The notes beneath the pieces are model-generated. The model saw nothing but the letters and a program-made list of their open reading frames with translations. It had not been told where the DNA came from and searched no databases. Source: Klebsiella phage NU-KP11. From it: a DNA stretch of 64,000 nt. Shown one piece after another: positions 5,234-57,360 of the stretch. The stretch's first letter is position 1. Every line of letters starts with the position of its first letter. The stretch lies in sequence record OR644643.1; one strand, written 5' to 3'. The translations under genes and the position numbers were made by a program.

Positions 5234-5596
5234 ATGTTAGAAATTCAACTAATCAGCGACGATTCTTTTTTAAAGATCCGTGAAACGCTAACCCGTATTG
5301 GTATTGCAAACAACAAAAAGAAAATGCTCTGGCAATCGTGCCACATTCTGAAAAAGCAAGGTAAGTATTTTATCGTGCATTTTAAAGAACTGTTGAAACT
5401 CGATGGTCGTCAAGTCGATATGACGGAAGAAGACGAACTACGCCGGAACAACATTGCGCGACTTCTCGAAGAGTGGGGCATGGTTAAGATCGTAACCCCT
5501 GGGTTGAAGTTTGCAGAAGAAAACAACTTCCGCGTACTGACTCACTCGCAAAAAGCAGATTGGATCCTCAAGTACAAGTACCGGATCGGTCACTAA
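5234..5596 (+). CDS. regA: translational repressor RegA
   Basis: 120 aa. FLKIRETLTRIGIANNKKKMLWQSCHILKKQGKYFIVHFKELLKLDGRQVDMTEEDE and NNFRVLTH match T4 RegA almost collinearly. Confidence 0.93.
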   Translation: MLEIQLISDDSFLKIRETLTRIGIANNKKKMLWQSCHILKKQGKYFIVHFKELLKLDGRQVDMTEEDELRRNNIARLLEEWGMVKIVTPGLKFAEENNFRVLTHSQKADWILKYKYRIGH

Positions 5597-5600
5597 TCAA

Positions 5601-5636
5601 AAAGCCCTTGCATTCTTGCAGGGGCTTTGTTATATT
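5601..5636 (+). promoter_or_regulatory. fused terminator hairpin / sigma70-like early promoter module
   Basis: aaagcccttgcattcttgcaggggctttgttatatt. The -35 TTGCAT lies inside the hairpin, then a 17-nt spacer and extended -10 TGtTATATT. Confidence 0.6.
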
Positions 5637-5664: not shown

Positions 5665-5952
5665 ATGACTATTAACGAAATCATGGATTCAATCAAATCC
5701 AACGAAACTTTGATCATCCCGATTGTAAAAGATGACATCTTGTTATCGTTAACTTGCAATCTGTCAGATACCCGCACTTACAGCTATGCACAACACTACT
5801 TTCCTGGATTTTACGATCGTAACATTTCAGAGTACACGTTGTTATGCAATCAAGTTGAAACCACTCATTTCTATGAGCGTATTAAAAAATCTCTGGACTT
5901 GATCCAACAAGCAAAAGAAGTCTTTATGAAAAGAATGGAGGACGCGCAATGA
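5665..5952 (+). CDS. hypothetical protein (95 aa)
   Basis: ORF preceded by the promoter module at 5601-5636 and an RBS gagagggatat. Confidence 0.5.
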   Translation: MTINEIMDSIKSNETLIIPIVKDDILLSLTCNLSDTRTYSYAQHYFPGFYDRNISEYTLLCNQVETTHFYERIKKSLDLIQQAKEVFMKRMEDAQ

Positions 5953-12371: not shown

Positions 12372-12450
12372 AAAGGTATTGACCTGAATCTCCATTGTGG
12401 TAATATAACTCACGTAGACAAGATACTGAGTTAAACAAAGGAGATTCAAA

Positions 12451-19812: not shown

Positions 19813-20090
19813 TCACATTAACTATTATGGATCGCCATTACTACGGGAACACGATTAACGAAGCGAAAGCAAAAGCCTTTGATGATATCATTAACCAGGA
19901 TCTGGTTAAAATTGAATCTGATCGCTATGTCGTGCAACCAGGTGATAGCCTATATTCTATAGCAAAGAAACTGTATGGTGTTGGTGAACTTTGGCCTGAT
20001 ATCGCCAAAATCAACCGTGATTCTATTCCGGATGCACGTCTGATCCATCCTGGTATAGTTCTTCGATTGCCAAAACTGGTAAAAATTTAA
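19809..20090 (+). CDS. LysM-domain protein (93 aa)
   Basis: VVQPGDSLYSIAKKLYGVGELWPDIAKINRDSIPDARLIHPGIVLRLP has LysM-domain spacing. Confidence 0.65.
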   Translation: MITLTIMDRHYYGNTINEAKAKAFDDIINQDLVKIESDRYVVQPGDSLYSIAKKLYGVGELWPDIAKINRDSIPDARLIHPGIVLRLPKLVKI

Positions 20091-20093
20091 AAC

Positions 20094-20130
20094 AAAGCCC
20101 TTGACTTCGGTTGAGGGCTTTTGTTATATT
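20094..20130 (+). promoter_or_regulatory. fused terminator hairpin / early promoter module
   Basis: aaagcccttgacttcggttgagggcttttgttatatt. The -35 TTGACT is in the stem, then an 18-nt spacer and TGtTATATT. Confidence 0.65.
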
Positions 20131-20153: not shown

Positions 20154-20303
20154 ATGAATTTTACTAAATTTGAAATCCGGCTGTTGATTACGCTGGCTAT
20201 TTGCGGAGCGGTATCATTGATTAGTTTGTTAACGTATATCGCTGTAAGAACAACGATATGGCTTCATGACTGGTTTACTGTACTTGACACAATTAAGGGG
20301 TGA
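20154..20303 (+). CDS. small membrane protein (49 aa)
   Basis: RBS aaaggagatt before the ATG at 20154. Single TM segment LLITLAICGAVSLISLLTYIAV. Confidence 0.5.
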   Translation: MNFTKFEIRLLITLAICGAVSLISLLTYIAVRTTIWLHDWFTVLDTIKG

Positions 20304-20306
20304 TTT

Positions 20307-20531
20307 ATGCGTATAGCGATTATTGGGGCGGCTTTGGGTGTAATCGGTGACCGTTTAGTAAACTGCATGATCGAAGAGTTAAAGTCACCACCCTATCCAT
20401 TTTCTATAGAATGGAACAACCAATTTCCTAATTTGGTTGGGGAAGAACCCACGATCCATAAAGTCAAACCATACCGAAATCCGGTTGTGCCTAAATCATT
20501 GCACCGTCAATCAGTAAACAGGGGTAAATGA
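20307..20531 (+). CDS. hypothetical protein (74 aa), N-terminal hydrophobic
   Basis: ORF with an RBS aattaaggggtgattt. Confidence 0.5.
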   Translation: MRIAIIGAALGVIGDRLVNCMIEELKSPPYPFSIEWNNQFPNLVGEEPTIHKVKPYRNPVVPKSLHRQSVNRGK

Positions 20532-20830
20532 TGTCAGAATTCGCGTTAGCTATCCTTGTCGTGATTGCTGTAATGGGTTCGATCCTGTTTTGTCGCATGT
20601 ATCAGTTAGATGATACACAGGAATGGTTGGACATTAACGAAAAACAGTTCCGTAAGCACTTTGCAGGTGAATTTGTTTTTGTGAAATTTCGTAGTGACTA
20701 CAAGGTCGAGTTTGAGTTTTACGGAAAAGGGAACAACTACCACATAATCACTTCTGTTATTGATGCAAAGAAAATCTTTGATAAGACACAGGGCGGCGGG
20801 ATCCGTAAATTGCTCAAAGAAATAAAATAG
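20528..20830 (+). CDS. membrane-anchored protein (100 aa)
   Basis: N-terminal TM segment FALAILVVIAVMGSILF. ATGA overlap. Confidence 0.5.
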   Translation: MMSEFALAILVVIAVMGSILFCRMYQLDDTQEWLDINEKQFRKHFAGEFVFVKFRSDYKVEFEFYGKGNNYHIITSVIDAKKIFDKTQGGGIRKLLKEIK

Positions 20831-20844
20831 CACTTTTTGTTAAA

Positions 20845-20880
20845 GAAGCCTCTTGCATCGCGGGAGGCTTTTTGGTATCT
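20845..20880 (+). promoter_or_regulatory. fused terminator hairpin / early promoter module
   Basis: aagcctcttgcatcgcgggaggctttttggtatctt with -35 TTGCAT. Confidence 0.55.
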
Positions 20881-20918
20881 TGTATTCATCGAAACGAAAC
20901 AGAGAAAGGAATACGAAA

Positions 20919-21182
20919 ATGGTTAAAGTAAAATATGCAGCACACGTTAAAGCAGGTGAGATTGTTGGTTTAACTTTCGGTGCTGAAATTGGTTCTCAGT
21001 GGGCGCTGGTTGAAAAGGTAGAAGACCTGGGCGATAAAGTAGCAATCACTGTGAAAATGCAAAAACGTTTTACTAACCGTCCTGTAATCACTAAGAAAGT
21101 GAAGAAGGAAAAACGTGTTAATACTCAGACTTTCGAAGAATTCATGAACTGGTGCAAAATGTATAAACTGGATACCTACTAA
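20919..21182 (+). CDS. hypothetical early protein (87 aa)
   Basis: Own promoter module (20852-20880), conserved leader CATCGAAACGAAAC and an RBS agaaagga. The track ORF start at 20853 lies inside the promoter. Confidence 0.6.
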   Translation: MVKVKYAAHVKAGEIVGLTFGAEIGSQWALVEKVEDLGDKVAITVKMQKRFTNRPVITKKVKKEKRVNTQTFEEFMNWCKMYKLDTY

Positions 21183-21255
21183 TAGCACTTTTTGTTAAAA
21201 TATTCTGGGGTAGCTTTGGTATAGTTACCCCATCGAAACAAGGGAGGAAATTATT

Positions 21256-21480
21256 ATGATGGTTAACGGTTCTCTTTATCAACAAGCAGTTGCACAGTGG
21301 AAACAGAAAGTTCAGGATGCAGAACGCGGGATCGCTTATTGTGATGAAGCGTTGGCAAGTAATCTTGAAAACTGGGAACGCAAAGAGTATGAGAAAGTTA
21401 AGCAACGCCATTTGAACGAACTCCCTGCATTAAAAGAACACTTAAAATATTTGATGGATAACGAAAAAATCCTTGCATAG
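21256..21480 (+). CDS. hypothetical early protein (74 aa)
   Basis: Own promoter TGgTATAGT, leader CATCGAAACAAG and an RBS gggagga. Confidence 0.6.
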   Translation: MMVNGSLYQQAVAQWKQKVQDAERGIAYCDEALASNLENWERKEYEKVKQRHLNELPALKEHLKYLMDNEKILA

Positions 21481-25944: not shown

Positions 25945-27230
25945 TGGAAAGAAGTATTAAAGATGTTGTACAGGTGGAAGGGCTAACGTTTGCCCTTTAC
26001 ACGATTTATTCACGTGCGATCCCGCACCTGGTAGACGGGTTTAAACCCGTTCACCGTTTCTTTATTCACTCTGCTATGCAGGGCGGAACGGGATTTCAGA
26101 AAGTAGCTTCTATCGCTGGCGGTGTTGCTATGTATGGGTATCACCACGGGGAAACCTCTGTAGAAGAAGCGTTATCCCTTATGGCGGCGCACTGGTGCAA
26201 TAACATTCCGTTATTCGACCGTGATGGGTTCTTTGGTTCCCGTTTGGTTAAGAAACCTGGCGCACCTCGTTACATCAAGTGTAAACTATCGCCAATATTC
26301 AAAGCAATTTATATGGATGGTGATTTAACGCCAGTTCATGAAGATCCGGAACATGTACCGCCAGCTTACTATCTCCCGATCATCCCGATGGTACTGGTTA
26401 ACGGGTTTAGCGGGATTGCAAAAGCATATGCAACAAACATTCCGCCTCATGATCCTAAATCGGTTGTTAACGGGTGCATTGCATATCTGAATGATAAAGA
26501 TTTCACACTGGATCTGAAATACCCTTACTTTAAAGGTGAAATCACAGACGGGACAATTTACGGCACGTATGAATTGCAAGGTAAAACCAAATTGGTGATC
26601 ACCGAGATCCCAGTGAAGTATGACCGTGTGAAATACATTGCAATCCTTGACAAGCTGGAAGAAAAAGGCGTTATCGTTAGCTACAAGGATCTATCGAAAG
26701 AAGATTTTCGTTATGAAGTAACGCTCAAGCGAGAGTATGCCAACGGGTTAACCCGCGAAAAGATCCTGAAAGATTTCGGGTTGATTGAAAATTCAAACCC
26801 AAACATTAACGTTATCTTTGAGGGTAAATTATACTCATATGAACGCCCCGAAACGCTTCTAAAGGATTTCGTTGATATTCGTATGAATGTATATCAACAG
26901 CGTATCAATAAGCGTATCCAGGAAACTAAGGAAGCGTTAGATAAAGCACTGGCAAAGGTTGCGTTTATTGCTCAAATGGTAGAATCTCCTGATTCTCTGC
27001 GTGGCCTTAGTCGCAGCGAAGCGGTTAAATTCGTGTCTACGTGGATAGGTTGCGAGAATCATGCCGAAATGTTAGTGGCTATGAACATCTACCATCTAAC
27101 CACGGACGAAAGCAAAAAGCTGGAAGACGAAGCCGAAGAATTGCGTAAACAGTTGAAATACTGGGAAGAAACAACCCCTAAAATTGAGTATCTCAATGAT
27201 TTAAAAGAACTTTCTAAGAAGTTGAAATAA
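25944..27230 (+). CDS. 52: DNA topoisomerase II medium subunit gp52 (GyrA-like)
   Basis: 428 aa. RAIPHLVDGFKPVHRF is the GyrA/ParC N-terminal signature. TAATG overlap with gene 39. Confidence 0.9.
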   Translation: MERSIKDVVQVEGLTFALYTIYSRAIPHLVDGFKPVHRFFIHSAMQGGTGFQKVASIAGGVAMYGYHHGETSVEEALSLMAAHWCNNIPLFDRDGFFGSRLVKKPGAPRYIKCKLSPIFKAIYMDGDLTPVHEDPEHVPPAYYLPIIPMVLVNGFSGIAKAYATNIPPHDPKSVVNGCIAYLNDKDFTLDLKYPYFKGEITDGTIYGTYELQGKTKLVITEIPVKYDRVKYIAILDKLEEKGVIVSYKDLSKEDFRYEVTLKREYANGLTREKILKDFGLIENSNPNINVIFEGKLYSYERPETLLKDFVDIRMNVYQQRINKRIQETKEALDKALAKVAFIAQMVESPDSLRGLSRSEAVKFVSTWIGCENHAEMLVAMNIYHLTTDESKKLEDEAEELRKQLKYWEETTPKIEYLNDLKELSKKLK

Positions 27231-27235
27231 TAACA

Positions 27236-27271
27236 AAGCCTCTTGCAATGCAAGAGGCTTTTTGCTATATT
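27236..27271 (+). promoter_or_regulatory. fused terminator hairpin / early promoter module
   Basis: aaagcctcttgcaatgcaagaggctttttgctatatt with -35 TTGCAA in the stem and TGcTATATT. Confidence 0.6.
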
Positions 27272-27301
27272 GGTTTTGTACCAAGCAAAGGAGATTCTAA
27301 A

Positions 27302-27856
27302 ATGTTGAAAACTCGTAGTGCAATGGAAGTAACCCACTGGGCGCGTACCATGATGGAAAAACACGGTTTGATCAGTAATGGTTGGACATTCCGGATCAAT
27401 GGACGCATTACAAAAACTCTGGGCCGTTGCAGTTATACCAAAAAACTGATCGAACTATCTGGTCGTCATGTTGCGGAAGATATCTACGAGGATATTTTAG
27501 ACACTCTTTTACACGAAATCGCTCATGCTCTTGTCGGGCGCGGTTATGAACATGGTAAAGTGTGGCAAGCTATGGCCTTGCGCCTGGGTGCTAAACCTTC
27601 ACCGAGTAAAACAACTACAAAGGATGCTAATCTGGTTGATAAGAATGAGATCCTTTACTGTTTGTTCATGAAAGATTATCAAGGCCGTGAAGTCTATCAG
27701 GCTAAAGCTGATAAGAAGTTTTACAACGATGTGATGAACGGTGTTAAGGATATGAAAAACATTTGGATCAGTGGGCGCAAGGCATATACAAAAGGCCGTC
27801 TGTATATCCGTCCAGTAACCCATGAAGAACTTGCATACATTCGCAAAGAGGGGTAA
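27302..27856 (+). CDS. SprT-like zinc metallopeptidase-domain protein
   Basis: HExxH motif LLHEIAHAL with a TLGRCSY region. RBS aaaggagattctaaa precedes the ATG at 27302; promoter module at 27244-27271. Confidence 0.6.
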   Translation: MLKTRSAMEVTHWARTMMEKHGLISNGWTFRINGRITKTLGRCSYTKKLIELSGRHVAEDIYEDILDTLLHEIAHALVGRGYEHGKVWQAMALRLGAKPSPSKTTTKDANLVDKNEILYCLFMKDYQGREVYQAKADKKFYNDVMNGVKDMKNIWISGRKAYTKGRLYIRPVTHEELAYIRKEG

Positions 27857-27859
27857 GGT

Positions 27860-28096
27860 ATGACACGTTATAATGCGCCTAAGTTGGGAAAATATCTGAC
27901 CATATTCGGATTTTGTGCGTTCTTTTCTATCATTATCGGGGCTATCGTGTGGGGTATACTTGATATGAAGAAACAGCAGGTCGAGGAAGAAAAATTGGTA
28001 AAATTCCTTGACACTTATTGCGAAGTAGTAGAATATGGCCTGAACAAAAAGCCAACGAAGTACTCTTGTGACCAAGTTATTTTTAATGTTAAGTGA
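27860..28096 (+). CDS. small membrane protein (78 aa)
   Basis: TM segment YLTIFGFCAFFSIIIGAIVWGIL. Confidence 0.5.
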   Translation: MTRYNAPKLGKYLTIFGFCAFFSIIIGAIVWGILDMKKQQVEEEKLVKFLDTYCEVVEYGLNKKPTKYSCDQVIFNVK

Positions 28097-28106
28097 GAAA
28101 TAAACA

Positions 28107-30368
28107 ATGAAATTACGCGAAGATACACCGCAAACAATCTACCGAGTTGGTACAGATACCAGCAAGGGACGAAACAAACTATCTCTACGCGCAAACAAGA
28201 AAGCGTATAAGATCCTTTCTTCGACAGTATACAAATACAAGATCCGCGCAATCATTCGCGAACTGTCTTGTAATGCGATCGATGGACACAAAGAAGCGGG
28301 AAATCAGAACCCGTTTGATGTCCAGTTGCCAACTGCTGTTGATCCTCGTTTTGTTATTCGTGACTACGGGATCGGTATGTCTCCTGATTTCGTTAGTGAT
28401 GCGTTTACCGTTTACTTCGAATCAACCAAAAATGATTCAAACGACCTGATCGGTTCTATGGGTCTGGGTTGCAAATCTCCGCTTTGCTATGCCGATGCGT
28501 TCACAGTTGAATCTGTAAAAGACGGTATCAAATGCGGTTACACAATCTATATGGATGATGGGGAACCGTTCTGCGATCCTCTGTATGAGATTGAAAGCGA
28601 TGAACCTAACGGGGTTACTATCACTGTTCCGGTTAAGGTTGAAGATATCAAAGAATGGGAAAACGAAGCAGCAAGGGTATACGAATCATTTACTGATATT
28701 CGTCCTAACTTTGTTGGTGCTTCTATTCTCAAAATCAACTATCAGCCGAAAGAAGCAACCAACGATAGTGGGGTGATCCGTCATAAATCAGCATACACTA
28801 GCGGTGTATATGCTCGCATGGGTAACATCATTTATCCTCTGGATAAAGATTTGTATGATACCTCGATGTTCTATTGCTATACAGAAAGCCAGTATACGTA
28901 TATTATTGACTTCCCGATCGGTGAACTTGATTTCATGCCTTCTCGCGAAGAGTTGAGTATGGATAAAATGACAGTAGGGATTATTAAAGAACGTCTGAAA
29001 CAAATCAGCCGGGTGTATTTCAATCGAGTTAAATCAGAATTCGATAAGTTACAAACCGTTCGTGATAAACTGACGTGGTTCCATTCTCTGCCTTCAATGG
29101 TACAAAACTTTGTTGGTAAAGATGCTAATTTTCGCATCAACGGTGATTCTATTGGCTGGATCCATAGCGAGCTAGTCAAACCCAACAAATATAATGATGA
29201 TTATATTGCTGGGTATTGGGCGAACGAATACGACGGTAAAGATGCATGGTATCAGGTAACGGGTAGCGGAGGCCGCTGGAGCAAGTATAAGCCAGAAACA
29301 ACCAAACGCCAGGACATCACACGCATTTATTATCCGTGGAAACAAAAGAAACTCATTCTGTTAAAAGTGGATACCAACACGGTTAAACCGTATATCGTCG
29401 GGTATGCTAAAATGCATAACCTAAGCCGTGTTAGCTTTGTTGCATATTACGATAGTGATTCAAAGCGTGAGATTGTTAATGATATCGTTCGGAAAGGTCA
29501 TTTTGATGAATCGGAAATTGTGTATCTCCGTACCAGTGAAATGACAAAAGAAAAAGAGATCTATGATGCAGATCGCGAAAAATCAAAAGCGCTATATGCA
29601 CCGAAAAATTCAGAACCGCGCCCAAAAACCCCGACCGTATATCGTTATGAGTTGGATAGTAACGGCAATCTGGCAAAAACTTCTCTGTTTATGACAAAAT
29701 CAGAGTTTTTATCACTGGATAAAGCCCCAGGTGTTCGGTTGTATGGTATTGATGAATATAGCCGCTTAGATGGTGAAAATTCCAGGTTGTCTATGGATTC
29801 AGCAATGAAAGAATCTACTTTATCGCGTATCATGCGCCATACTGGGATCCCTGTTGTGTTTGCTATCCGTAACAGCCTATGGAAGTGGATCCCTGATTCA
29901 AATCTGGTATGCTTTGATGATATGCTGTGCAAGCAGTATGTTAAATCCGAAAAGGCATTGAAAGATAATTGCTTGCCTGGATGGATTGGTAAGGAACACT
30001 CAACAGAAACAGACGCATTGCATAGCCGTTTTGGTGTATCGCTTGATCGGATTGTGAAAAACCGATATAATGAAAAACTGTATAAGATTGTTGATACCCT
30101 CGAACGTATAGTGTGTCTGGAAGGGTATGAGAAAGATGGTAAAAATCTTTCCAGGGCGCGTTGTCCGATTCTGCGTGAATCTGTAGCATCAATGCGCGTT
30201 AAACGCAGCAATATGAAAAAACGTGTTGATCAGGCATGGGAAATCTTTAAATCACTAAACCCGTTACTGGCTTCACTTGTTGAACATAGCGATTCTTATT
30301 CAATTCGTCCGATTTACAACAACGAAAAGAATCTCAGTGAGTTTAAGAAATTAATACGGTGGAAATAA
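28107..30368 (+). CDS. rIIA: rIIA protein (membrane-associated, GHKL-like ATPase N-domain)
   Basis: 753 aa. KAYKILSSTVYKYKIRAIIRELSCNAIDGHKEAGN...DPRFVIRDYGIGMSPDF matches the T4 rIIA N-terminus. Confidence 0.9.
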   Translation: MKLREDTPQTIYRVGTDTSKGRNKLSLRANKKAYKILSSTVYKYKIRAIIRELSCNAIDGHKEAGNQNPFDVQLPTAVDPRFVIRDYGIGMSPDFVSDAFTVYFESTKNDSNDLIGSMGLGCKSPLCYADAFTVESVKDGIKCGYTIYMDDGEPFCDPLYEIESDEPNGVTITVPVKVEDIKEWENEAARVYESFTDIRPNFVGASILKINYQPKEATNDSGVIRHKSAYTSGVYARMGNIIYPLDKDLYDTSMFYCYTESQYTYIIDFPIGELDFMPSREELSMDKMTVGIIKERLKQISRVYFNRVKSEFDKLQTVRDKLTWFHSLPSMVQNFVGKDANFRINGDSIGWIHSELVKPNKYNDDYIAGYWANEYDGKDAWYQVTGSGGRWSKYKPETTKRQDITRIYYPWKQKKLILLKVDTNTVKPYIVGYAKMHNLSRVSFVAYYDSDSKREIVNDIVRKGHFDESEIVYLRTSEMTKEKEIYDADREKSKALYAPKNSEPRPKTPTVYRYELDSNGNLAKTSLFMTKSEFLSLDKAPGVRLYGIDEYSRLDGENSRLSMDSAMKESTLSRIMRHTGIPVVFAIRNSLWKWIPDSNLVCFDDMLCKQYVKSEKALKDNCLPGWIGKEHSTETDALHSRFGVSLDRIVKNRYNEKLYKIVDTLERIVCLEGYEKDGKNLSRARCPILRESVASMRVKRSNMKKRVDQAWEIFKSLNPLLASLVEHSDSYSIRPIYNNEKNLSEFKKLIRWK

Positions 30369-32540: not shown

Positions 32541-32873
32541 ATGAAAACCGCTTTGATCATTCTTGAAGAAATTCCTGAAAATACAACGCTTTACAAAGTC
32601 GAAACTGACGATAGCGAAGTAATTGAGATCCTCAAAACCGCCCACGGGCATTATGTAAACGGTTCCGGCAACACCAAAGAACAGGATTATGCTGTTGATG
32701 TTGTTAACCTCATGCTGGGGCCGAATACCGATGATAACCTGAAATGGGCGCGTGAATCCAACATTCCTGAAAAGTATGTTGGTATGTTCTATCAGTGTAA
32801 CATCGATAGCAAATCACCGTTTGAACCAGAAAAGAAAATCGATCTGATTGTTCGCACTGGGTTCTTCTTATGA
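32541..32873 (+). CDS. hypothetical protein (110 aa)
   Basis: Start chosen at the internal ATG with RBS aaggtaag. The track ORF starts at 32451. Confidence 0.45.
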   Translation: MKTALIILEEIPENTTLYKVETDDSEVIEILKTAHGHYVNGSGNTKEQDYAVDVVNLMLGPNTDDNLKWARESNIPEKYVGMFYQCNIDSKSPFEPEKKIDLIVRTGFFL

Positions 32874-33097
32874 GTATACAAATTCTGTTCAGTAAAGAAG
32901 ATCCATTAGGTACGGAATCATCGGTTCAGCGCTTATTCTGGCATACAGATTATATAAAAAATCGATGTCGTGGCCCAAACAACACATGGGGAAGCAACAA
33001 CGATATTGACAAAGCAAAAATTTATCCTCGCGGAAAGGCGTACTGGAAAATTTTTGATATTCATCTTCATAAAACAATGAAAGATTCGAATGAATGA
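32870..33097 (+). CDS. hypothetical protein (75 aa)
   Basis: ATGA overlap. Confidence 0.45.
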   Translation: MSIQILFSKEDPLGTESSVQRLFWHTDYIKNRCRGPNNTWGSNNDIDKAKIYPRGKAYWKIFDIHLHKTMKDSNE

Positions 33098-33102
33098 TTA
33101 AA

Positions 33103-33139
33103 AAGCCCTTGACTTCGGTCAGGGGCTTTTGCTATATTA
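33103..33139 (+). promoter_or_regulatory. fused terminator hairpin / early promoter module
   Basis: aaagcccttgacttcggtcaggggcttttgctatatt. The -35 TTGACT is in the stem, then TGcTATATT. Confidence 0.65.
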
Positions 33140-33177: not shown

Positions 33178-33975
33178 ATGACTAACGCAACCGTAGTTAC
33201 TACCACTTACTTCATTTCTTCTGGTCGTAAAAATGCAATGTATACCTTGCGTGTTGAGCGTAGAGGTGGCGGTTATACTTCTGATAACTATATCTGCAAC
33301 TTATCTACCGATCCGGAGAAAGCGGAAGCGAAAGCGCGTGAGTATTTCGACCGTGTTTCAGCCCGTTTAACTGAAACTGATACTTTCAAAATGGTATTCC
33401 AGGGCTTTGCAGATTTCGATCTGTTCGAACGTCGCGGTAAACTGTCAGTGTTCGATACTGAAAAACTGGAACTGCTGGAAAAAGGGATCATGCCGATTGG
33501 CAAGCGTAAAGGCGAAGTAATTGCAGAAATGCCAATGTTTACTGTTCTTTGGTGGGCTGACCAGTCTAAAGAAGACAACAAAAACAGCCCTGTATTTGAC
33601 GCCGTGTGCGCTTACTGCATGGGTGTTGCACTGGAGAAGGATTATATCGCCAAACGCGAAGAAATCCGCGAACAGTGGGAACAAGAGCGCCAGGAACGCA
33701 TTTCTAAAGCTAACCACATCGGTGAAATCAAACAACGTCTGGAAATGACCGGAACCGTTGAGAAAGTGATTTCACTGGGATATACTCAAGTTTCTTACTA
33801 CACTTCTGTAGAAAGATTCATGACCAAAATTAATGTTGATGGTAATGTTGTTGTTTACTTCGGTAATAACATTGCAAACGAAGGTGATGAAATCACTTTC
33901 AAAGCAACCGTTAAAGAGCACGGAGAATACAAAGACGTTAAACAAACCATCGTTCAACGTGTAAAGGTTTTATAA
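33178..33975 (+). CDS. hypothetical early protein (266 aa)
   Basis: Promoter module at 33109-33139, leader TATCGAAACGAG and an RBS taaggagaaatacc. The track ORF start 33094 lies upstream of the promoter. Confidence 0.6.
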   Translation: MTNATVVTTTYFISSGRKNAMYTLRVERRGGGYTSDNYICNLSTDPEKAEAKAREYFDRVSARLTETDTFKMVFQGFADFDLFERRGKLSVFDTEKLELLEKGIMPIGKRKGEVIAEMPMFTVLWWADQSKEDNKNSPVFDAVCAYCMGVALEKDYIAKREEIREQWEQERQERISKANHIGEIKQRLEMTGTVEKVISLGYTQVSYYTSVERFMTKINVDGNVVVYFGNNIANEGDEITFKATVKEHGEYKDVKQTIVQRVKVL

Positions 33976-34531: not shown

Positions 34532-35179
34532 TCACCTCGCTCGACCTAAAATGCGCGCGGCCTGTCCACATATGATGTTTAGCTTCATATCTGGTATATC
34601 AGGCCGCTTTGCATACCATTCCATCAAAACCGATCCAGAATAGTAGTTATCAAGATTAAAATAAGGGCAACTAAAAGTATAAGCTACTGGCACAAAATCA
34701 CGTGTCGGTAGGTAGGAACTTGCTTTAGTGGATGAATAATACAAGCCATTTATATGATTCGTGTATTCTTCGGATGTTTTATCGATCGGATAACCGCCGA
34801 GGTTTTTAGGATCGATCTGGGATGGTAATTTTCCCTGATATTCTACAATGTCAACAAAATAGTTTATATTCTTTGGTCTGAATGCCAATACCGCTGAAAA
34901 ATCCGCGTTGGAAGTAAGATGAACTATGCTCAACTGTTCCAACGCGGATTGATTAAACTTTTCTGTTCTTTCCATTTCGATAGCCCTTGTATCGACTACA
35001 AGGGCACCTTTTATCATCGGGAATATATCAGTCCATTTGTACCAAGTTACTACCATAAGAAACATAACCATTATTAGAATTATTTTTATCAGCAATTGTT
35101 TCCATGTTTTCACACCCATCACAAACGAGATTACCCGATCAAATAAGGCTAGTTTATCTACGGGATTTCTCTCAGCCAT
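34532..35179 (-). CDS. t: holin t
   Basis: 215 aa. N-terminal TM segment, then ALEQLSIVHLTSNADFSAVLAFRPKNINYFVDIVEYQGKLPS...LGGYPIDKT...CPYFNLDN...ICGQAARILGRAR, collinear with T4 holin T. Confidence 0.92.
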   Translation of the reverse strand: MAERNPVDKLALFDRVISFVMGVKTWKQLLIKIILIMVMFLMVVTWYKWTDIFPMIKGALVVDTRAIEMERTEKFNQSALEQLSIVHLTSNADFSAVLAFRPKNINYFVDIVEYQGKLPSQIDPKNLGGYPIDKTSEEYTNHINGLYYSSTKASSYLPTRDFVPVAYTFSCPYFNLDNYYSGSVLMEWYAKRPDIPDMKLNIICGQAARILGRAR

Positions 35180-35258: not shown

Positions 35259-35786
35259 TTATATCTCAGTAATGATCCCAGAAATGGTTACACCTACGTT
35301 ACCATTAAGAAAACCATACCAATCTTTACTCATCGCGTCATAGTTTCTGAATCCATCACGCATATAACTTGATATCCTGAAATCAAAAGTCCATTGTTGA
35401 TTGTTATCTACACGGGTAAACAAAATGCGTACATTTCGATTTGGCCCGTCATAGATTGTTAAGTTAGAATAGTTTTCTGCTGAATCGCCGATAGCGCCAA
35501 TAGTACCAATCTGCTTACCATTATAATCACCAACGATAGTATAAGCAGAGTCAGAAATGTTGTACCATACACCAGTATCAGCACCCTTACGCCAAACACC
35601 ACGCCAACGAGTGTTGTTATACCAACGTTCCTGGGGAACAAAAGTAAAATGCCATTTGCTACGCCCAATTAATTGAGACATATAAAATGGTGTTCCAAGT
35701 CGAACTACGGCAGCAGCTTGAATCATGGATCGTTGTCCAGTTTCATTAACCGCCGAACTTCCAACTAGTGGGCCGGAAATAGCCAT
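35259..35786 (-). CDS. 38: gp38 tail-fibre tip adhesin, T2-type N-terminal gp37-attachment domain with divergent C-terminal domain
   Basis: 175 aa. N-terminus MAISGPLVGSSAVNETGQRSMIQAAAVVRLGTPFYMSQLIGRS matches T2-type gp38 (MAVVG.PGWIG.SAVNETGQRWMSQAA...RLG.P..MSQ.AGRS). The C-terminal 130 aa lack the Gly-rich motifs. Position 37-38-t as in T-even phages. RBS ggaggttaactaatg. Confidence 0.75.
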   Translation of the reverse strand: MAISGPLVGSSAVNETGQRSMIQAAAVVRLGTPFYMSQLIGRSKWHFTFVPQERWYNNTRWRGVWRKGADTGVWYNISDSAYTIVGDYNGKQIGTIGAIGDSAENYSNLTIYDGPNRNVRILFTRVDNNQQWTFDFRISSYMRDGFRNYDAMSKDWYGFLNGNVGVTISGIITEI

Positions 35787-35802
35787 TAGTTAACCTCCGA
35801 AA

Positions 35803-35819
35803 AGGGGCCGAAGCCCCTT
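35803..35819 (-). terminator. hairpin between genes 37 and 38 (attenuator-like)
   Basis: aaggggcttcggcccctt on the minus strand, directly upstream of the gp38 RBS. Confidence 0.45.
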
Positions 35820-38800
35820 AATTAAGTTTTCTTTCAAGTTCATTAACTTTAGCAGTTAACTTGTTGACCTGATCTACCAGAACCGCAACAATCGCATTAT
35901 AGTTCAAGCGAATATGTTCAGGATCTGAATCATCAACAGCAGTAGGAAGGCTTTCCTGAACTTCCTGAGCAATAAGCCCCGTTGATTTAGTCCATGCGTC
36001 ATCTGCTGTAGGATCTCGAACTTCGTAATGATAAGCTGACATTTTGCTCAAAATTTCTTCGGAGCTTTCAACTTTAGTGATATTACGTTTATGTCGTTTA
36101 TCGGAAGTTATATAAACATCCTGTGCGTACAACGTACCGTTACACGACATATCACCATTATTACGGAATTCGAACCAACCGTTACTGTTAGCCCCAAACA
36201 CATGAAGCATATGGAAATGACGTTCGCCTACACGTTCAACAAATATATTCTCAGAACCGAGGTCGGTTCCTTGCATAAGATGTCTTACGCCACGAACTTC
36301 ACGAACCCAGCGGTTTCCTGCGTTGGCATCCTGATACGCGCGTGTACCTGCGCAATCAATAGAACCTTTGTTGTAGAAGTTAGCTTTGTTCCTGTCTTCG
36401 TTGTTTTCGCCAGTACCACCGTTGTTAACACCAACGTTCAGTTCGCCTTGCTGAATGATAAAGTAGTTACCAGTGTTCCATATAACGTTTTTACCGTTTA
36501 TATTACTAAACCCGATATTACCAGCAGCATCAGCAAACAAAATACCACGATTTGTATTACCGTCCGTATGCCTAAAGTTAATAGACGCCCAGGCGTTATT
36601 ATCACTCGTTGGCTGAATAATCGGAGAACCTTTAACACGAAGACCTGTTGTCAGTTCCGCATGGTTTGCTCGAAACATTCCATTTGTATGAAATTCAAAC
36701 CATCCAGTATTATCTCCTGCTGTTGATTGTAATCCAATGAATGCGCTATTTCCTACACGTTCTGTAAATCGCAGAGTTCCTAAATTAGAACCAGCACCAA
36801 ACATCGTAATGCCGTCGGTTTCGTTGACAGTAACAGAACCTTCTGTATACGTCCTGATCCCCCGTTTCTCGATTGGCCCTACATTATTAACCGTTAATGT
36901 GTTGTTTAATGTAGTAGCACCAGAAACAGTTAACGTACCAGTAGCAGACATATTTCCGTTTGCACTGATATTACCATTAACTATCATGTTACCACTAGAA
37001 TCAATCCTTGTTTCGTTTGTGCTGGATGTATCTCCTTGAGGACGTAGATAAATCGTTTGTCCAGCTTTAGCAGAAATAATCAACGCACCGCCGTTATTAG
37101 CCCTGATTTTAGCCCCTTGTGCATACTCGATCGCGGTATCACCACCACTTCCAGCGGTAGCAGTTACTTTGATCAAGTTGTTGGTTTGAGTTGGGCCACC
37201 AGGACGCAATTCAACAGCACGACCACCACCAGAACTACCAATAATCACGCGACCATCAGTACTTTCTAACAGAGCACTACCACTACCGATCACAACACCT
37301 TTATCAGTGTACTTCGTGGAAGAAGCACCACCTAACCCTAAGTTGCCACCTACGCGAGCGTTGTTAGCAACAATCAGATCATTTCCGCTGTTCAGGTTTC
37401 CTGTAGTCGTGGTAACAGATTTAAATGATACATCGTCATCGTTTCCGCTAATGACGTTCATTCTCCACGGTGTCCATGCTTTAGCAGTACCGCTAACAGT
37501 GAACCAACGTTCCCAACTGCGTTTATTGTCCGATGCGCGTAATACTTGACGGTTAGTGTAATCTGTATCGCTTACTTTACGGAGACATTCAACAATAACA
37601 ATAAAGTTACCACCGACGCCAGAAGGTTTATTGGTGATGTTATCACCGCCACCCATACTACGGCACGAATAAACTTTAACAGTACCCGGTTCGGTATAGT
37701 TCAATGTTAAAGCATCAAGATCCTGAGTTACCCCAGTCAAATCATACGCAGCAACAGGGCCAGTAAATCCACCAGTTGAATTAACCACACCAGCAACGTT
37801 AATATCACGCCCGAAGTTAACTACCCATCTGTTTATTGTATCCGAAGACAACAGCCATGCGTTTTGTGTCTGGTTTTCTGCTTCACCGTAACGAATATCA
37901 CCGTTTACATCAATACCCAAACGTTTCATGTTCATACCGGAAAGTTTGAACCCGATAGACAAGTTCGAGTTAGTCGGTCTATTCAGTAACAGCGGAGTGT
38001 GCTGCGAACCACTAATAGAAACGGTTTGTTCGGTTGTAGTTGAACTTGTGTTATTAAAGTTCGCATAGGATGTATTAACAGTTCGACCGTTAAATGCACC
38101 ATATGTGATGTTAATATTACCCGGTGATGTAAATGTACCGTCAGATTTAAAAGAGAATTCTCCACCTGTCGTTCCACCACTCGTTCTGGCACGAATGCGA
38201 ACTTCACCAGAAGAGGCAGTGTTAGGCAACGCCCACACAGCACCACTTTCAACCCCTTTATACTTAAACCAAATTACGGAGTTTCCGCTCTCAGCATTCA
38301 AATGAAAACCAGGTGATGTTTTCGAGATCGTTAGATCACCAGACATCGTATCACCAACACGTGCAACAGCCCCTACGTCATCAGGAGTCGGTTTAAATGC
38401 AGTACCGTACAGTTCCTGGAAGTTGATTCTTCCTGTATCTGAGTTTAAGTTAGCATCATTAGTTGCACCAACTTTAACGCGACCAGTATTCCAATCAACT
38501 GAGATCACCGCATGAACATCTGATACAGAACTATAAAAACTTGCGCCCATACCATAGTTAATTTCAGTACCAAGCGTATTTCGCATGAACTGAGAACCAT
38601 CAGTACGCAGTTGTTTCAGATAGTCGCGAGCGTTAGAAACGGTGTATGATGTACCCTTACCGCCTAAACCGTAAGCACCAACAAGCATTACTTGTCCGGA
38701 ACCTGTACCAACATCACGGGTTGCAGCAGTACCCAAACCTAAGTTTGTGCGAGCAGCAGCCGCTGTACTTGCGCCTGTACCACCTTTAGCAACAGACAGA

Positions 38801-40697: not shown

Positions 40698-40714
40698 AAT
40701 AACCCCTTTTTACA

Positions 40715-40744
40715 TATTTATAAGGCCCGATGATCCGGGCCTTT
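40715..40744 (-). promoter_or_regulatory. terminator hairpin plus T4-type late promoter TATAAATA upstream of gene 36
   Basis: Minus strand reads aaggcccggatcatcgggccTTATAAATAtg. Confidence 0.55.
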
Positions 40745-40746
40745 GT

Positions 40747-45644: not shown

Positions 45645-45676
45645 TATCTTTTTTCCTATATTGTATTCAATACCAA

Positions 45677-45710
45677 TATTTATATACAAAAAATGGCCCG
45701 AAGGCCATTT
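45677..45710 (-). promoter_or_regulatory. terminator hairpin plus late promoter TATAAATA upstream of gene 34
   Basis: Minus strand reads aaatggccttcgggccattttttgTATATAAATAttgg, about 33 nt before the gp34 ATG. Confidence 0.6.
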
Positions 45711-45723
45711 AACTGATTATTTA

Positions 45724-49016: not shown

Positions 49017-49228
49017 TTCATGTTACCTTTCTTCACGAGGATCAGTTCTTTGATCCGTTCAACAATAACGATGTATTCCCATTTAGCTAACTTTTGGGTA
49101 TCACACCACTTTTGAAACTCTTTCATAGCCTCTAAGTGACCTTTACTCCAGTACATTTCTGCAATTTCGTTGCAAAGAGTTTCAGTAGCAGTGTTTTTGA
49201 TTTTCATAACATCCTCCTTAGTTGACAA
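49013..49228 (-). CDS. hypothetical protein (71 aa)
   Basis: ORF with an RBS aaggagga. Confidence 0.45.
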   Translation of the reverse strand: MSTKEDVMKIKNTATETLCNEIAEMYWSKGHLEAMKEFQKWCDTQKLAKWEYIVIVERIKELILVKKGNMK

Positions 49229-49267
49229 GAAGGATGTTACTACATTCAGATATACAGGTCAATACTT

Positions 49268-49519: not shown

Positions 49520-49528
49520 AATTTATAC

Positions 49529-50041
49529 CTATTTCAATAGTTTACCGCGTAGATAATCAGGAGCTTTTAAAATTTTCCCGTCGTCTACATACCCAACTTC
49601 AATTAAATCATCAATTAGATTGATAGATTCCCCAGATGCTGCATAGAATTGCAACCTTCTTTTCTTTACGATAGCCATATAAACATGATTATACGTAGGA
49701 GTCATTCTCTTAACAACACCAATCATACAGAGTCTGTTAAGGCATCCAGTATAAGATCGGCCCGTTGCTTTTGAGTAATCTTCCAGGCTTCCGCGTGGTA
49801 TAGCAGAAACAAGATCCTTGTAGTCTTTTCGTTTCCACGTCCGACCAACCGCACATTTTGTTACACCGTCAGCCATTTTAGAATTTGGGTGCTTCTCATC
49901 TTCACGCATCTTTTTATCTTCAAGAAATTTCTGAAATCGAATTTCTTCGAGATAGTCAATAGCGTTCTGAAAACGATTTTGTCTCTTCTCGCGTTCAACA
50001 ATACGGGAAGGAAATAACTTATCAAGGATCTTGCTAATCAT
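49529..50041 (-). CDS. hypothetical basic protein (170 aa)
   Basis: ORF. Confidence 0.45.
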   Translation of the reverse strand: MISKILDKLFPSRIVEREKRQNRFQNAIDYLEEIRFQKFLEDKKMREDEKHPNSKMADGVTKCAVGRTWKRKDYKDLVSAIPRGSLEDYSKATGRSYTGCLNRLCMIGVVKRMTPTYNHVYMAIVKKRRLQFYAASGESINLIDDLIEVGYVDDGKILKAPDYLRGKLLK

Positions 50042-50741: not shown

Positions 50742-50980
50742 AAAGCCCTCAATTTTGCGCCGCTAATGAGAACATCTTTCATTTGTTTTGCGGTGCGGAT
50801 AGTAGTTGCCAGTTCTAAAGAGACATCATTACGATATGCTGTGCCGTCTTCACACAGAACCAAACCAGGACGGCCCTTGATAGGGTTGATGACTTCAACG
50901 CGAGTTGGATGATTTTCAACTTTGTAGCCTAATGCAAACGCACATGCTACTACATCGGTCATTTTCTTAGTCAGTTTCAT
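50738..50980 (-). CDS. hypothetical protein (80 aa)
   Basis: Strong RBS aaaggagacagatt before the ATG at 50980. Reverse-oriented terminator/promoter module at 51005-51042 upstream. The track start 51016 is TTG. Confidence 0.55.
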   Translation of the reverse strand: MKLTKKMTDVVACAFALGYKVENHPTRVEVINPIKGRPGLVLCEDGTAYRNDVSLELATTIRTAKQMKDVLISGAKLRAL

Positions 50981-51004: not shown

Positions 51005-51042
51005 CCAATATAACAAAAGCCCTCAACCGAAGTCAAGGGCTT
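51005..51042 (-). promoter_or_regulatory. reverse-oriented copy of the fused terminator/promoter module (terminates nrdD, promotes 50738-50980)
   Basis: Minus strand reads aaaaagcccttgacttcggttgagggcttttgttatattggg, nearly identical to 20094-20130. Confidence 0.65.
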
Positions 51043-51047
51043 TTTGA

Positions 51048-53965: not shown

Positions 53966-54817
53966 TTACATTAAGTCATCCAGTGTTTCAGGGTATGTAT
54001 TTACGTCGCGTTTCTGATAGTTGCACACGTAGACTTCTTGCGTTTTATTTTGTTCGTAAGAATCAGTATGCTGGCCTAACAGATACTTTTTATCGAGGTT
54101 ATGCACATTATATTTTTGCATCCACTCGATCAGGATATCATTTTGCTTTCCTGCATGATGTGTAACGTTTGATAAACCAAACTTGATACCATCAGAGTTT
54201 AAATTATCGAGAAAATCATATAATTCATGCTCTCGTTCTTCGTTCCAGAATTTGTTATAAACTGCATCAGTGATCAGGTACGGCGGATCGCAGTACACAA
54301 AATCATTCAAACAGATATCAAGATCCTTAAACGATGCGCTAGAGAATTCAATTCCCCGAACATTATTTTTGAAGTGTTCAAACCGTTTAACGGTAGAATC
54401 ATTCAATGTTCTACAACCAAAATTGGCGTTAAAATCGCCTTTATCGTTGGTTCGATTAACATTACTAAACGAATGCAGGATTAGAACATAGAGCCATAGC
54501 GGATCCTTGTTCTTATTATATGCATCACGAAATGTGAGATACGCTTCTTTCTCGTTCTTACCCAGACCATACTGTTTAATCAATTCTCGCACCGGAGAGA
54601 GGTCAGGAAGCATTTGAAGGCGCTTATACATATCAATCAACGTCCGATCGTAATCGTTGCTTAGAACGGGTTTAGGGACGTTTAGTGACACACTCAACCC
54701 ACCACAAAAACAGTCGATGAATCGCATATAGCTGTTTCTGTCTGGAAATAATTTGAACAGTTCAGGAAGTAGCTTTTGCTTGTTTCCTGTGTATGGGATC
54801 ACACCATAATAACTCAT
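53966..54817 (-). CDS. dam: Dam DNA N6-adenine methyltransferase (T4 Dam-like, DPPY)
   Basis: 283 aa. YTGNKQKLLPEL, FCGGLSVSLNV, motif IV YCDPPYLITDAVYNKFWNEE and KFGLSNV, collinear with T4 Dam. Confidence 0.92.
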   Translation of the reverse strand: MSYYGVIPYTGNKQKLLPELFKLFPDRNSYMRFIDCFCGGLSVSLNVPKPVLSNDYDRTLIDMYKRLQMLPDLSPVRELIKQYGLGKNEKEAYLTFRDAYNKNKDPLWLYVLILHSFSNVNRTNDKGDFNANFGCRTLNDSTVKRFEHFKNNVRGIEFSSASFKDLDICLNDFVYCDPPYLITDAVYNKFWNEEREHELYDFLDNLNSDGIKFGLSNVTHHAGKQNDILIEWMQKYNVHNLDKKYLLGQHTDSYEQNKTQEVYVCNYQKRDVNTYPETLDDLM

Positions 54818-55116
54818 AATTCACAAAGCCCTTTTTCAAATTTTGCAATGGTATCGTACTTGTAACCACGATTCACTATGAAGCATTGAGTTTCACCCAA
54901 TTTATTGATCATGTCAATAGCTCTTTGTTCGTCTTTCTTACCTCTTAATTGTAAGGCAATTCTTACGATCTCTTTTAGTGTTTCGTCGTTGACTTCTTCC
55001 AGTTTAAAGGAATACCCAGCGATTTTAGCAAAAAGCCCCTTGCGAGCTACAAGGGGCATGTTGTCATAGAAAATCACGGTTCCTTTGTCGTTTTTGCGGA
55101 TACTAAATCCCGGCAC
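54814..55116 (-). CDS. hypothetical protein (100 aa)
   Basis: ORF with an ATGA overlap. Confidence 0.45.
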   Translation of the reverse strand: MPGFSIRKNDKGTVIFYDNMPLVARKGLFAKIAGYSFKLEEVNDETLKEIVRIALQLRGKKDEQRAIDMINKLGETQCFIVNRGYKYDTIAKFEKGLCEL

Positions 55117-57283: not shown

Positions 57284-57360
57284 GATGTTTATCCTTCTGA
57301 GTTAGTGTCTTGTCTACGGGAGTTAGAATACTACTATAACCAACCCCCGTCAACACCTTT

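Follow-up and report, generated by a model that had tools for sequence, protein, structure and literature searches.

Fused hairpin-promoter modules of Klebsiella phage NU-KP11 as probable promoter-early stem-loop cassettes of a T4-like clade

Short intergenic modules in which a terminator-like hairpin is fused to a sigma70-type promoter recur six times in a 64,000-nucleotide stretch of Klebsiella phage NU-KP11 (OR644643.1; the whole of this stretch is hereafter called the window). We think it likely that these modules are composite cassettes of the promoter-early stem-loop (PeSL) type, each combining a terminator with a sigma70 promoter between co-oriented early genes. PeSLs were described in the hyperplastic regions of T4-like phages as composites of a sigma70 promoter and a stem-loop lying between a stop codon and the next ATG (PMC2839356, PMC4122927). 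The window is assigned to Klebsiella Slopekvirus (Straboviridae; T4-like, KP15/KP27 group), with best matches that are 98-99% identical, and a 5-kb piece around the module at 20094 matched 175 phage records. Its genes run rightward to ~34.5 kb and then leftward to ~62.6 kb. We refer to the six fused copies as c1 to c6, and to a related module at 21178-21255 as M2. An earlier, sequence-only reading had proposed all six, and each was found where that reading had placed it, save that c3 ends at 20881 and not at 20880.

All six copies are intergenic and co-oriented with the genes around them. Given an intergenic share of ~5.8% of the window, a figure that comes from a crude gene map, the chance of this placement is 0.058^6, or about 4e-8. 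The stem begins 3-12 nt past the upstream stop codon, and 23-39 nt separate the end of the -10 hexamer from the next ATG, so that the modules do sit at gene boundaries, in the sense direction, in six of six cases, as had been anticipated. Their RNA is predicted to fold into a hairpin of 11-14 bp with a loop of 3-4 nt (-18.3 to -22.8 kcal/mol, z of -3.3 to -5.1). The -35 box had been placed in the 3' arm of this hairpin; the hexamer actually belongs to the 5' arm, apart from its sixth base, which is part of the loop, and it is the promoter spacer of 17-18 nt that consists of the 3' arm and the T-tract. The extended -10 described as TGyTATATT is present in c1, c2, c4, c5, and c6, whereas c3 has TGGTATCTT. 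Likewise, the description of the copies as nearly identical holds for c2 and c6 (37/37 nt) and for c5 (~85-89%), but not for c1, c3, and c4 (65-82%), which resemble c2, c5, and c6 in design more than in sequence. A repeat finder run without guidance nevertheless ranked the module family first (direct repeat D1, with 6 copies, and inverted repeats I1 and I2), and the motif search that the sequence-only reading had called for, using a 39-nt consensus and allowing at most 3 mismatches, gave three matches (20094+, 33102+, and 51005-) against 0.00 expected from 100 shuffles.

The two arms of the hairpin change together among relatives. When 2.9 million viral contigs were scanned with a strict pattern, 47 stretches in ~17 contigs matched, and the contigs long enough to judge were all T4-like (KP15, RB16, RB43, Lw1, CfP1, and uncultured relatives of 140-180 kb). 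From these contigs, the window, and KP27, we assembled 21 distinct stem-loops, all with a geometry of 11 pairs and a 4-nt loop; the outer six pairs were set by the search pattern and are uninformative, while the inner five were free to vary. Standard pairing was found in 231/231 pair cells, with both sides changed in 14. The compensatory changes coincide exactly with the variable part of the -35 hexamer, whose positions 4 and 5 form pairs of the types CG/AU/GC/UG and AU/CG/GC, respectively. The covariation score was 0.322 compared to 0.173 in shuffles, none of which (0/500) reached it, and fell to 0.07 or less when the partner column was slid. The TTG of the hexamer is invariant, and its pairing partners vary. 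Across genera, the core is 95-100% identical, compared to 72-83% for the coding DNA there.

The hairpins are also tightly coupled to promoter motifs. We took the census in 164 kb of DNA chosen without regard to the modules, namely the window plus KP27 30.3-130.3 kb (KP27 130.3-140.8 kb lies outside it). A TAnnnT hexamer is located 17-19 nt from the TTG after 13/13 intergenic sense hairpins of the module type, and TGn precedes the -10 hexamer in 11 of the 14 copies counted in the window and KP27, including all of c1 to c6, whose spacing falls within the 17 +/- 1 nt typical of sigma70 promoters. The leaders contain a GGAG-like Shine-Dalgarno sequence, and there is a tract of A3-6 around -41 to -45. 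It could be argued that these are ordinary intrinsic terminators in which the -35 and -10 motifs are incidental by-products of a stem with a TTG and a tail rich in A+T. The outer sequence, AAGCCCTTG...GGGCTTT, is indeed common in generic terminators, with more than 120 stretches in unrelated viral contigs among the matches listed and 58 in bacterial genomes, and several annotators marked only a terminator at module sites, as in KLB21, Miro, and Matisse. However, in a background of 94 hairpins with equal outer sequence from unrelated viral contigs, TAnnnT occurs at that spacing in 15 and TGn-TAnnnT, at 16-19 nt, in just 2, compared to the 11/14 found in the phage genome. The motif is missing from strong hairpins of other kinds in this DNA, for instance the stand-alone GGGGC-TTCG-GCCCC terminators of the window, and the TTG is kept despite its varying partners. 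Accordingly, we regard the plain-terminator explanation as very improbable. The covariation, the promoter coupling, and the genomic distribution together support the proposal that an intrinsic terminator and a sigma70-type promoter are fused, and in the KP27 record, terminators called by ARNold overlap promoters called by MEME at module sites. We also observed the same fused design, for example AAAAGCCCTTGACAAATGTCAGGGGCTTTTGCTATACT, in two unrelated viral contigs, L272 (87 kb) and L296 (7.5 kb), so this architecture occasionally recurs outside the clade.

Counting the window and KP27, we arrive at ~14 copies per KP27 genome, every one in a region of early genes or ORFans, and a scan of the structural block at 100-130 kb of KP27 found none. 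Genes that precede modules include regA, gene 52, nrdD, and the DNA ligase gene. Among 10 open reading frames (ORFs) adjoining modules, a Pfam scan left nine without a family, the exception being the SprT-like ORF after c4. The modules were said to give each small early gene its own promoter; they do lie between early genes, but the transcription units they head comprise 1 to 4 or more genes. An Rfam 15 scan of the window gave no match at the gathering score.

These features suggest a model in which one sequence would be read twice. A transcript arriving from the upstream gene would fold at AAAGCCC...GGGCUUU into the G+C-rich hairpin of 11-14 bp, followed by a U-rich tail (UUUUGUUAUAUU); since a hairpin with such a tail has the shape of an intrinsic terminator, the upstream transcript should end within the element. 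In DNA, the same bases would act as a promoter for host sigma70. The A-tract at the stem's base, around -41 to -45, would lie where an UP element does, the -35 hexamer (TTGACT, TTGCAT, or TTGCAA) would come from the upper part of the 5' arm, the 3' arm and T-tract would form the spacer of 17-18 nt, and the end of the T-tract would contribute the TG of the extended -10 (TGnTATATT). The new transcript would start ~7 nt past the -10 and thus would lack the hairpin, having instead a leader of 16-32 nt with a Shine-Dalgarno sequence. In this way, the downstream gene or genes would be insulated from upstream transcription and given a start of their own and, because most bases would be doubly used, the sequence would be strongly constrained. 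An experiment that had been suggested, asking whether the RNA hairpin occludes the promoter, does not apply to this arrangement, since the hairpin is only found in transcripts arriving from upstream and module-started transcripts begin downstream of it. Finally, as near-identical repeats of 40-90 nt, the modules could serve as homology patches with which phage recombination swaps, deletes, or inserts gene cassettes.

When in infection the modules are used can be approached through what they contain. T4-type middle promoters require MotA and AsiA, and are recognized by a MotA box, (a/t)(a/t)(a/t)TGCTTtA, centred at -30 without a -35 hexamer. No copy from c1 to c6 contains TGCTT, all of them having TTGACT, TTGCAT, or TTGCAA at -35, and TTGCTTA was seen in one hairpin-less KP27 promoter. 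A tblastn search with T4 MotA and AsiA gave no Slopekvirus among the matches listed (taken in even steps through ~1,150), which were only from Klebsiella phages of other genera with genomes of 166-172 kb, and neither protein is annotated in the KP27 regions read. The 184-aa ORF after c4 and gene 52 was considered as a MotA candidate and rejected, being SprT-like. RB43 is reported to have neither motA nor a middle consensus (PMC1524935, PMC3486835), and Nolan 2006 counted sites of the C/G-TTGAC type as RB43 early promoters (PMC1524935). Because no MotA or AsiA was found and the geometry is fully sigma70-like, we infer that the modules are early promoters for host sigma70.

It is unlikely, in our view, that the modules instead form a distinct middle-like class, in which a phage factor reading GCCC-TTGCAT and/or the block ACACACATCGAAAC replaces MotA and AsiA. 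This idea draws on the two promoter motifs held in the KP27 and KP15 records, one "TTGACA-N15-18-TATAAT-like" and the other the "putative middle" motif from MEME, on a second promoter class, AAAGGT(A/G)TTGAC..., that is also present in the window, on hairpin-less promoters that retain AAAAAGCGCTTGCAT or AAAAAGTGCTTGCTT plus the ATCGAAAC leader, and on the middle mode of RB43-like phages, which is unexplained (PMC3486835). Yet the modules have the complete geometry of a sigma70 promoter, with a -35 hexamer, a spacer of 17-18 nt, and an extended -10; homologues of MotA and AsiA were not found among the tblastn matches listed or in the KP27 regions read; the C/G-TTGAC-type sites of RB43 are counted as early; and T1-like phages, which have genes for neither an RNA polymerase nor a sigma factor, share this leader and -10 design (PMC11447400). 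The AAAGGT(A/G)TTGAC family itself comprises 12372-12450 (+), 57284-57360 (-), and 49208-49267 (-), the first two with a common leader, CGTAGACAAGA(T/C)ACT, and corresponds to the "consensus-like" promoter class of the KP27 record. On the late side, the T4-type late promoter motif TATAAATA comes immediately after terminator-like hairpins at 40698-40746 (-) and 45645-45723 (-) (GGGCCTTATAAATATG and GGCCATTTTTTGTATATAAATATT), and these sites are a late-gene counterpart of the fused design.

Comparison of related genomes documents that homology breaks at module edges. Relative to KP27 and UViG_3300045988_041714, homology stops at 20911, just before the ATG after c3, and resumes at 21178, which is the stop codon before M2; ORF 20919-21182 is exchanged in these genomes for 526 bp with three RB16-like ORFs. 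A clean indel of 225 bp in RB16 (32868-33092) ends at the 5' edge of c5, and homology with RB16, RB43, Lw1, and CfP1 resumes at 33093-33100 (33098-33100 for the last three). In PSKm4DII (MZ707157.1), a deletion of 1,214 bp (27269-28482) extends from the extended -10 of c4 into rIIA and is joined at an 8-bp microhomology, TTTGCTAT (L002 ~27797-27804). This deletion destroys the -10 of c4 and removes the SprT-like ORF, the 78-aa ORF, and the first ~125 codons of rIIA, such that PSKm4DII is probably an rII-type mutant. By a rough estimate from a small sample, ~2 of the 5-6 indels among close relatives touch a module, compared to ~0.1 expected. The number of modules in close relatives ranges from 4 to 8, and no relative with a clean deletion between c2 and c3, leaving a single chimeric module, was seen among the matches listed, which were evenly sampled. 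The breakpoints fit the published PeSL recombination model and favour the suggestion that the modules could be recombination substrates; any causal part in these exchanges would be our extrapolation from where the breakpoints fall. Two further differences between relatives were noted. A 513-bp segment (49523-50035) that is present in KP15 is missing from PSKm4DII and UViG_3300045988_041714, and holds a 170-aa ORF (49529-50041, -) without a Pfam match. Similarity to PSKm4DII is undetectable over 35265-36766, where the adjoining stretch is just 92% identical to KP15; this region, with the distal tail-fibre and gp38-like adhesin genes, is likely a host-range variable segment.

One might turn the argument around and propose that the elements persist chiefly because they are recombination sites or because a specific DNA-binding or recombination protein targets them, with the transcription signals secondary, an idea about recombination sites that was raised by Arbiol et al. 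(PMC2839356). The identity of c2 and c6 over 37 nt despite diverged flanks could be read this way, as could the high identity of the core compared to coding DNA, the variable copy number, and the breakpoints at module edges. We consider this quite unlikely, as transcription signals would be expected to show just such a placement from stop codon to ATG, always in sense, and such a compensatory pattern, no recombinase is associated with the modules, and the PSKm4DII deletion arose through the 8-bp microhomology, not through homology between modules. The notion of a small mobile element, similar to a miniature inverted-repeat transposable element or a repetitive extragenic palindrome, or of a sequence acquired from the host, is barely credible. 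Dispersal, a palindromic nature, and occurrence in both orientations are features the modules have in common with such elements, but the modules never interrupt genes, have no target-site duplications, and follow the orientation of the genes, and the strict motif is found only in T4-like contigs. No pair of filled and empty sites differing by the element and a target duplication was seen, and a scan of 185,579 bacterial species genomes gave no match in Enterobacteriaceae. Among bacteria, the matches were Streptococcus terminators, each at a single locus, scattered singletons, and a phage contig present as contamination. This contig, NZ_JBHSCL010000010.1 (178,077 bp; assembly "Flagellimonas marina CGMCC 1.15774"), has at least five fused modules and is itself 74-80% identical to the window; it is a complete-length genome of a T4-like enterobacterial phage and most likely contaminates the assembly.

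Several points weigh against the interpretation of the modules as PeSL-type cassettes or restrain it. The U-tract is short, with 3-5 U before the first G, and termination could be partial and attenuation-like as a consequence. The -10 is TATATT rather than TATAAT, and positions 4-6 of the -35 are variable. A phage factor could still be involved, given the label in the KP27 RefSeq record, where a "terminator" from ARNold overlaps a "putative middle promoter; discovered using MEME" at module sites, and the second conserved block, ACACACATCGAAAC, found after the -10 in many copies. In the literature searched, there were no transcriptome or transcription start site papers on Slopekvirus and no mapped transcript ends for the genus. 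With respect to recombination, the double function alone can account for the high conservation, which therefore does not prove recombination or gene conversion, and the breakpoint evidence consists of three cases and a rough null, not a population-wide survey.

The individual copies vary in their details and surroundings. In c1 (5601-5636, +), a stem of 5601-5612/5617-5628 with a TTCT loop (-20.4 kcal/mol) begins 4 nt past the regA stop codon (5594-5596); the -35, TTGCAT (5608-5613), is separated by 17 nt from the hexamer (5631-5636) of TGT-TATATT (5628-5636), and the next ATG is at 5665. The c2 module (20094-20130, +) follows a stop codon that ends at 20090, and has a stem of 20094-20105/20110-20121 with a UUCG loop, TTGACT at 20101-20106, a spacer of 18 nt, and TGT-TATATT at 20122-20130 (hexamer 20125-20130). 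It heads three small ORFs (20154-20830), the first ATG being at 20154, and its site is annotated as a terminator in KLB21 and as a terminator plus promoter in KP27. Next comes c3 (20843-20881, +), preceded and overlapped by a 21-nt repeat of the type found in phage T1, AATAGCACTTTTTGTTAAAGA, at 20826-20846. Its 14-bp stem (20843-20873, -19.6 kcal/mol) includes TTGCAT at 20853, which is followed after 17 nt by TGG-TATCTT (20873-20881, hexamer 20876-20881), a leader with CATCGAAACGAAAC, and an ATG at 20919.

A palindromic 12-bp stem (27235-27261) forms c4 (27235-27271, +), located after the topoisomerase gene 52, whose stop codon ends at 27230. Here TTGCAA (27243), a spacer of 17 nt, and TGC-TATATT (hexamer 27266-27271) head a unit comprising the SprT-like ORF, the 78-aa ORF, rIIA, and rIIB, and the KP27 record annotates a terminator plus promoter at the site. 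The 13-bp stem of c5 (33101-33138, +), at 33101-33130, has a UUCG loop and the lowest energy, -22.8 kcal/mol; TTGACT (33109), a spacer of 18 nt, and TGC-TATATT (hexamer 33133-33138) precede a leader with ATCGAAAC and an ATG at 33178. The single reversed copy, c6 (51007-51044, -), is the one identical to c2, with a stem of 51044-51015, TTGACT at 51036, a spacer of 18 nt, and TGT-TATATT (hexamer 51012-51007). It begins 3 nt past nrdD (stop codon 51048), is co-directional with the minus-strand genes, and is followed by an ATG at 50980. In M2 (21178-21255, +), a T1-type repeat, AATAGCACTTTTTGTTAAAAT, precedes a hairpin, GGGGTA...TACCCC, that encloses the extended -10 TGGTATAGT, and then come the leader CATCGAAAC, a Shine-Dalgarno sequence, and the ATG. 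Together, c3 and M2 make up a direct-repeat pair, with AATAGCACTTTTTGTTAAA, TTTGGTAT, and CATCGAAAC in common, that flanks the swappable ORF 20919-21182.

A degenerate and uncertain seventh copy lies at 55022-55057 (-), where GCCCCTTGT-AGCTC-GCAAGGGGC is followed by TTTTTGC-TAAAAT with a spacer of 19 nt and a fold z of -2.0. It overlaps the annotated ATG (55059) of ORF 54814-55059 and thus cannot be the promoter of that ORF. Annotated coding sequence starts run through a fused module both in this 81-aa ORF and its homologues and in KP27_121 (module at KP27 L006 34860-34898, -), whose start codon was probably called too far upstream. Within the coding region of the holin gene (t), a perfect 9-bp hairpin in a similar sequence style, GCCCTTGTA-N5-TACAAGGGC (34983-35005), has neither a T-tract nor a -10 on the coding strand, and may be a remnant or a chance match.

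The repeat in c3 and M2 connects these modules to another group of phages. T1-like phages (TLS, T1, and Rtp) have a 21-nt intergenic direct repeat, aaATAGCACnnnTTGnTAAAA, for which function was posed as an open question (PMC11447400). A 1.6-kb query matched more than 200 T1-like siphoviruses, solely over the modules at 20826-20918 and 21178-21255, which align with intergenic modules of T1-like Drexlerviridae, including Webervirus, Veterinaerplatzvirus, T1, and others, over 60-100 nt at 75-88% identity. Webervirus KP36, Penguinator, and a Veterinaerplatzvirus have the same layout from stop codon to ATG, consisting of AATAGCACTTTTTGTTAAA, a hairpin, the -10, CATCGAAAC, and a Shine-Dalgarno sequence. 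Genomes of T1-like phages, T1, Rtp, and TLS among them, have multiple copies of the 17-mer TAGCACTTTTTGTTAAA, which corresponds to this repeat and gave 160 distinct modules; in these, the -10 most often begins 22 nt after TTGTTA. The T1-like modules and those described here are alike in that the repeat in c3 and M2 precedes a hairpin, a -10, and the CATCGAAAC leader of Webervirus and Veterinaerplatzvirus; the repeat copies come directly after stop codons and, in M2, the repeat is 22 nt before the -10. They are unlike in that the repeat is missing from five of the six fused copies (c1, c2, c4, c5, and c6), and in that the T1-like modules have no -35 hexamer at 17 nt, the repeat being fixed at 22 nt before the -10. 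In the window and KP27, aaATAGCACnnnTTGnTAAAA was found only at c3 (20826-20846), at M2 (21181-21201), and in one further KP27 copy (L006 25174-25194), and the module family as a whole does not have the sense-oriented repeat ~76 nt before the start codon that marks the T1-like modules.

The leader also occurs more widely. A block of the form (ACACA)CATCGAAAC(GAAAC) starts 6-9 nt past the -10, about where transcription is expected to start, and is present in modules with and without a hairpin, including many of those of KP27, RB16, RB43, and T1-like phages. Window-wide enrichment of ATCGAAAC is not significant (8 found versus 4.2 expected); four of the eight matches are in leaders of intergenic promoter modules, 6-9 nt past the -10 (20888, 21232, 21508, and 33145), and a fifth, at 1563, directly follows a -10-like hexamer. 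Transfer of a whole promoter-ORF cassette from T1-like phages was considered and rejected, as ORFs 20919-21182 and 21256-21480 have only T4-like homologues, which leaves the non-coding cassette alone as common to both phage groups. We tentatively suggest, as a possibility that we hold with some doubt, that interchangeable sub-elements, namely the upstream repeat, the hairpin, the extended -10, and the CATCGAAAC leader, might pass between unrelated families of virulent enterobacterial phages.

How do the modules compare to known PeSLs? [quoted passage not shown] Like those of RB49 and phi1, the modules are intergenic, multi-copy elements that combine a sigma70-like promoter with an upstream tract rich in A/T and with a stable stem-loop of predicted terminator capacity, and they are located among ORFans in early, hyperplastic regions beside indels and replacements. 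They differ in that the stem is AAAGCCC...GGGCTTT rather than Gn-loop-Cn and the -10 is TATATT with an extended TG rather than TATAAT. A single dominant architecture, in which the 5' arm contains the -35 and the T-tract serves as spacer, distinguishes the Slopekvirus modules, which are known from sequence. The design of the nt-1 PeSL is close, with A3-4G3-loop-C3T3-4 and TTGYVH-N17-TAWWAT compared to AAAGCCC-loop-GGGCTTT and TTGMHT-N17/18-TATATT, and PST and nt-1 also have "half" or degraded copies (PMC4122927), comparable to the copy at 55057 and to a AAAAAGCGCTTGCAT half without the 3' arm. In those phages, which differ in host range and clade, the stem-loop usually lies shortly before the promoter without being fused to it.

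The same sites in the near-identical KP27 and KP15 genomes already carry overlapping terminator and promoter features, though Maciejewska et al. 2016 give only promoter and terminator counts and do not mention the fusion, the family, the covariation, or a link to PeSLs (PMC5219037). In the literature searched, we found no papers naming PeSLs in Slopekvirus or the RB43/RB16 group, and module sequence strings returned nothing relevant. The modules belong to a known kind of element that was already half-annotated in public records, and do not represent a new mechanism.

What the modules add is the reach of the PeSL concept to a fourth T4-like clade, Slopekvirus together with the RB43/RB16 group, with unusually clean covariation. 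They provide a clear map of transcription units for Slopekvirus phages, which are widely used as candidates for Klebsiella therapy, and would explain why small ORFan cassettes are gained and lost among isolates that are otherwise near-identical. There are also consequences for annotation, as the "middle promoter" label has no support from MotA or AsiA, and no fewer than two starts, as annotated, overlap a module. If non-coding cassettes are truly exchanged horizontally, shuffling of the PeSL type would reach beyond T4-like phages, and the T1-like 21-nt repeat would be a promoter-proximal element, at about -49 to -33 and fixed 22 nt before the -10, that could be studied in two phage families. 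Confirmation of this link would thus make the role of that repeat testable.

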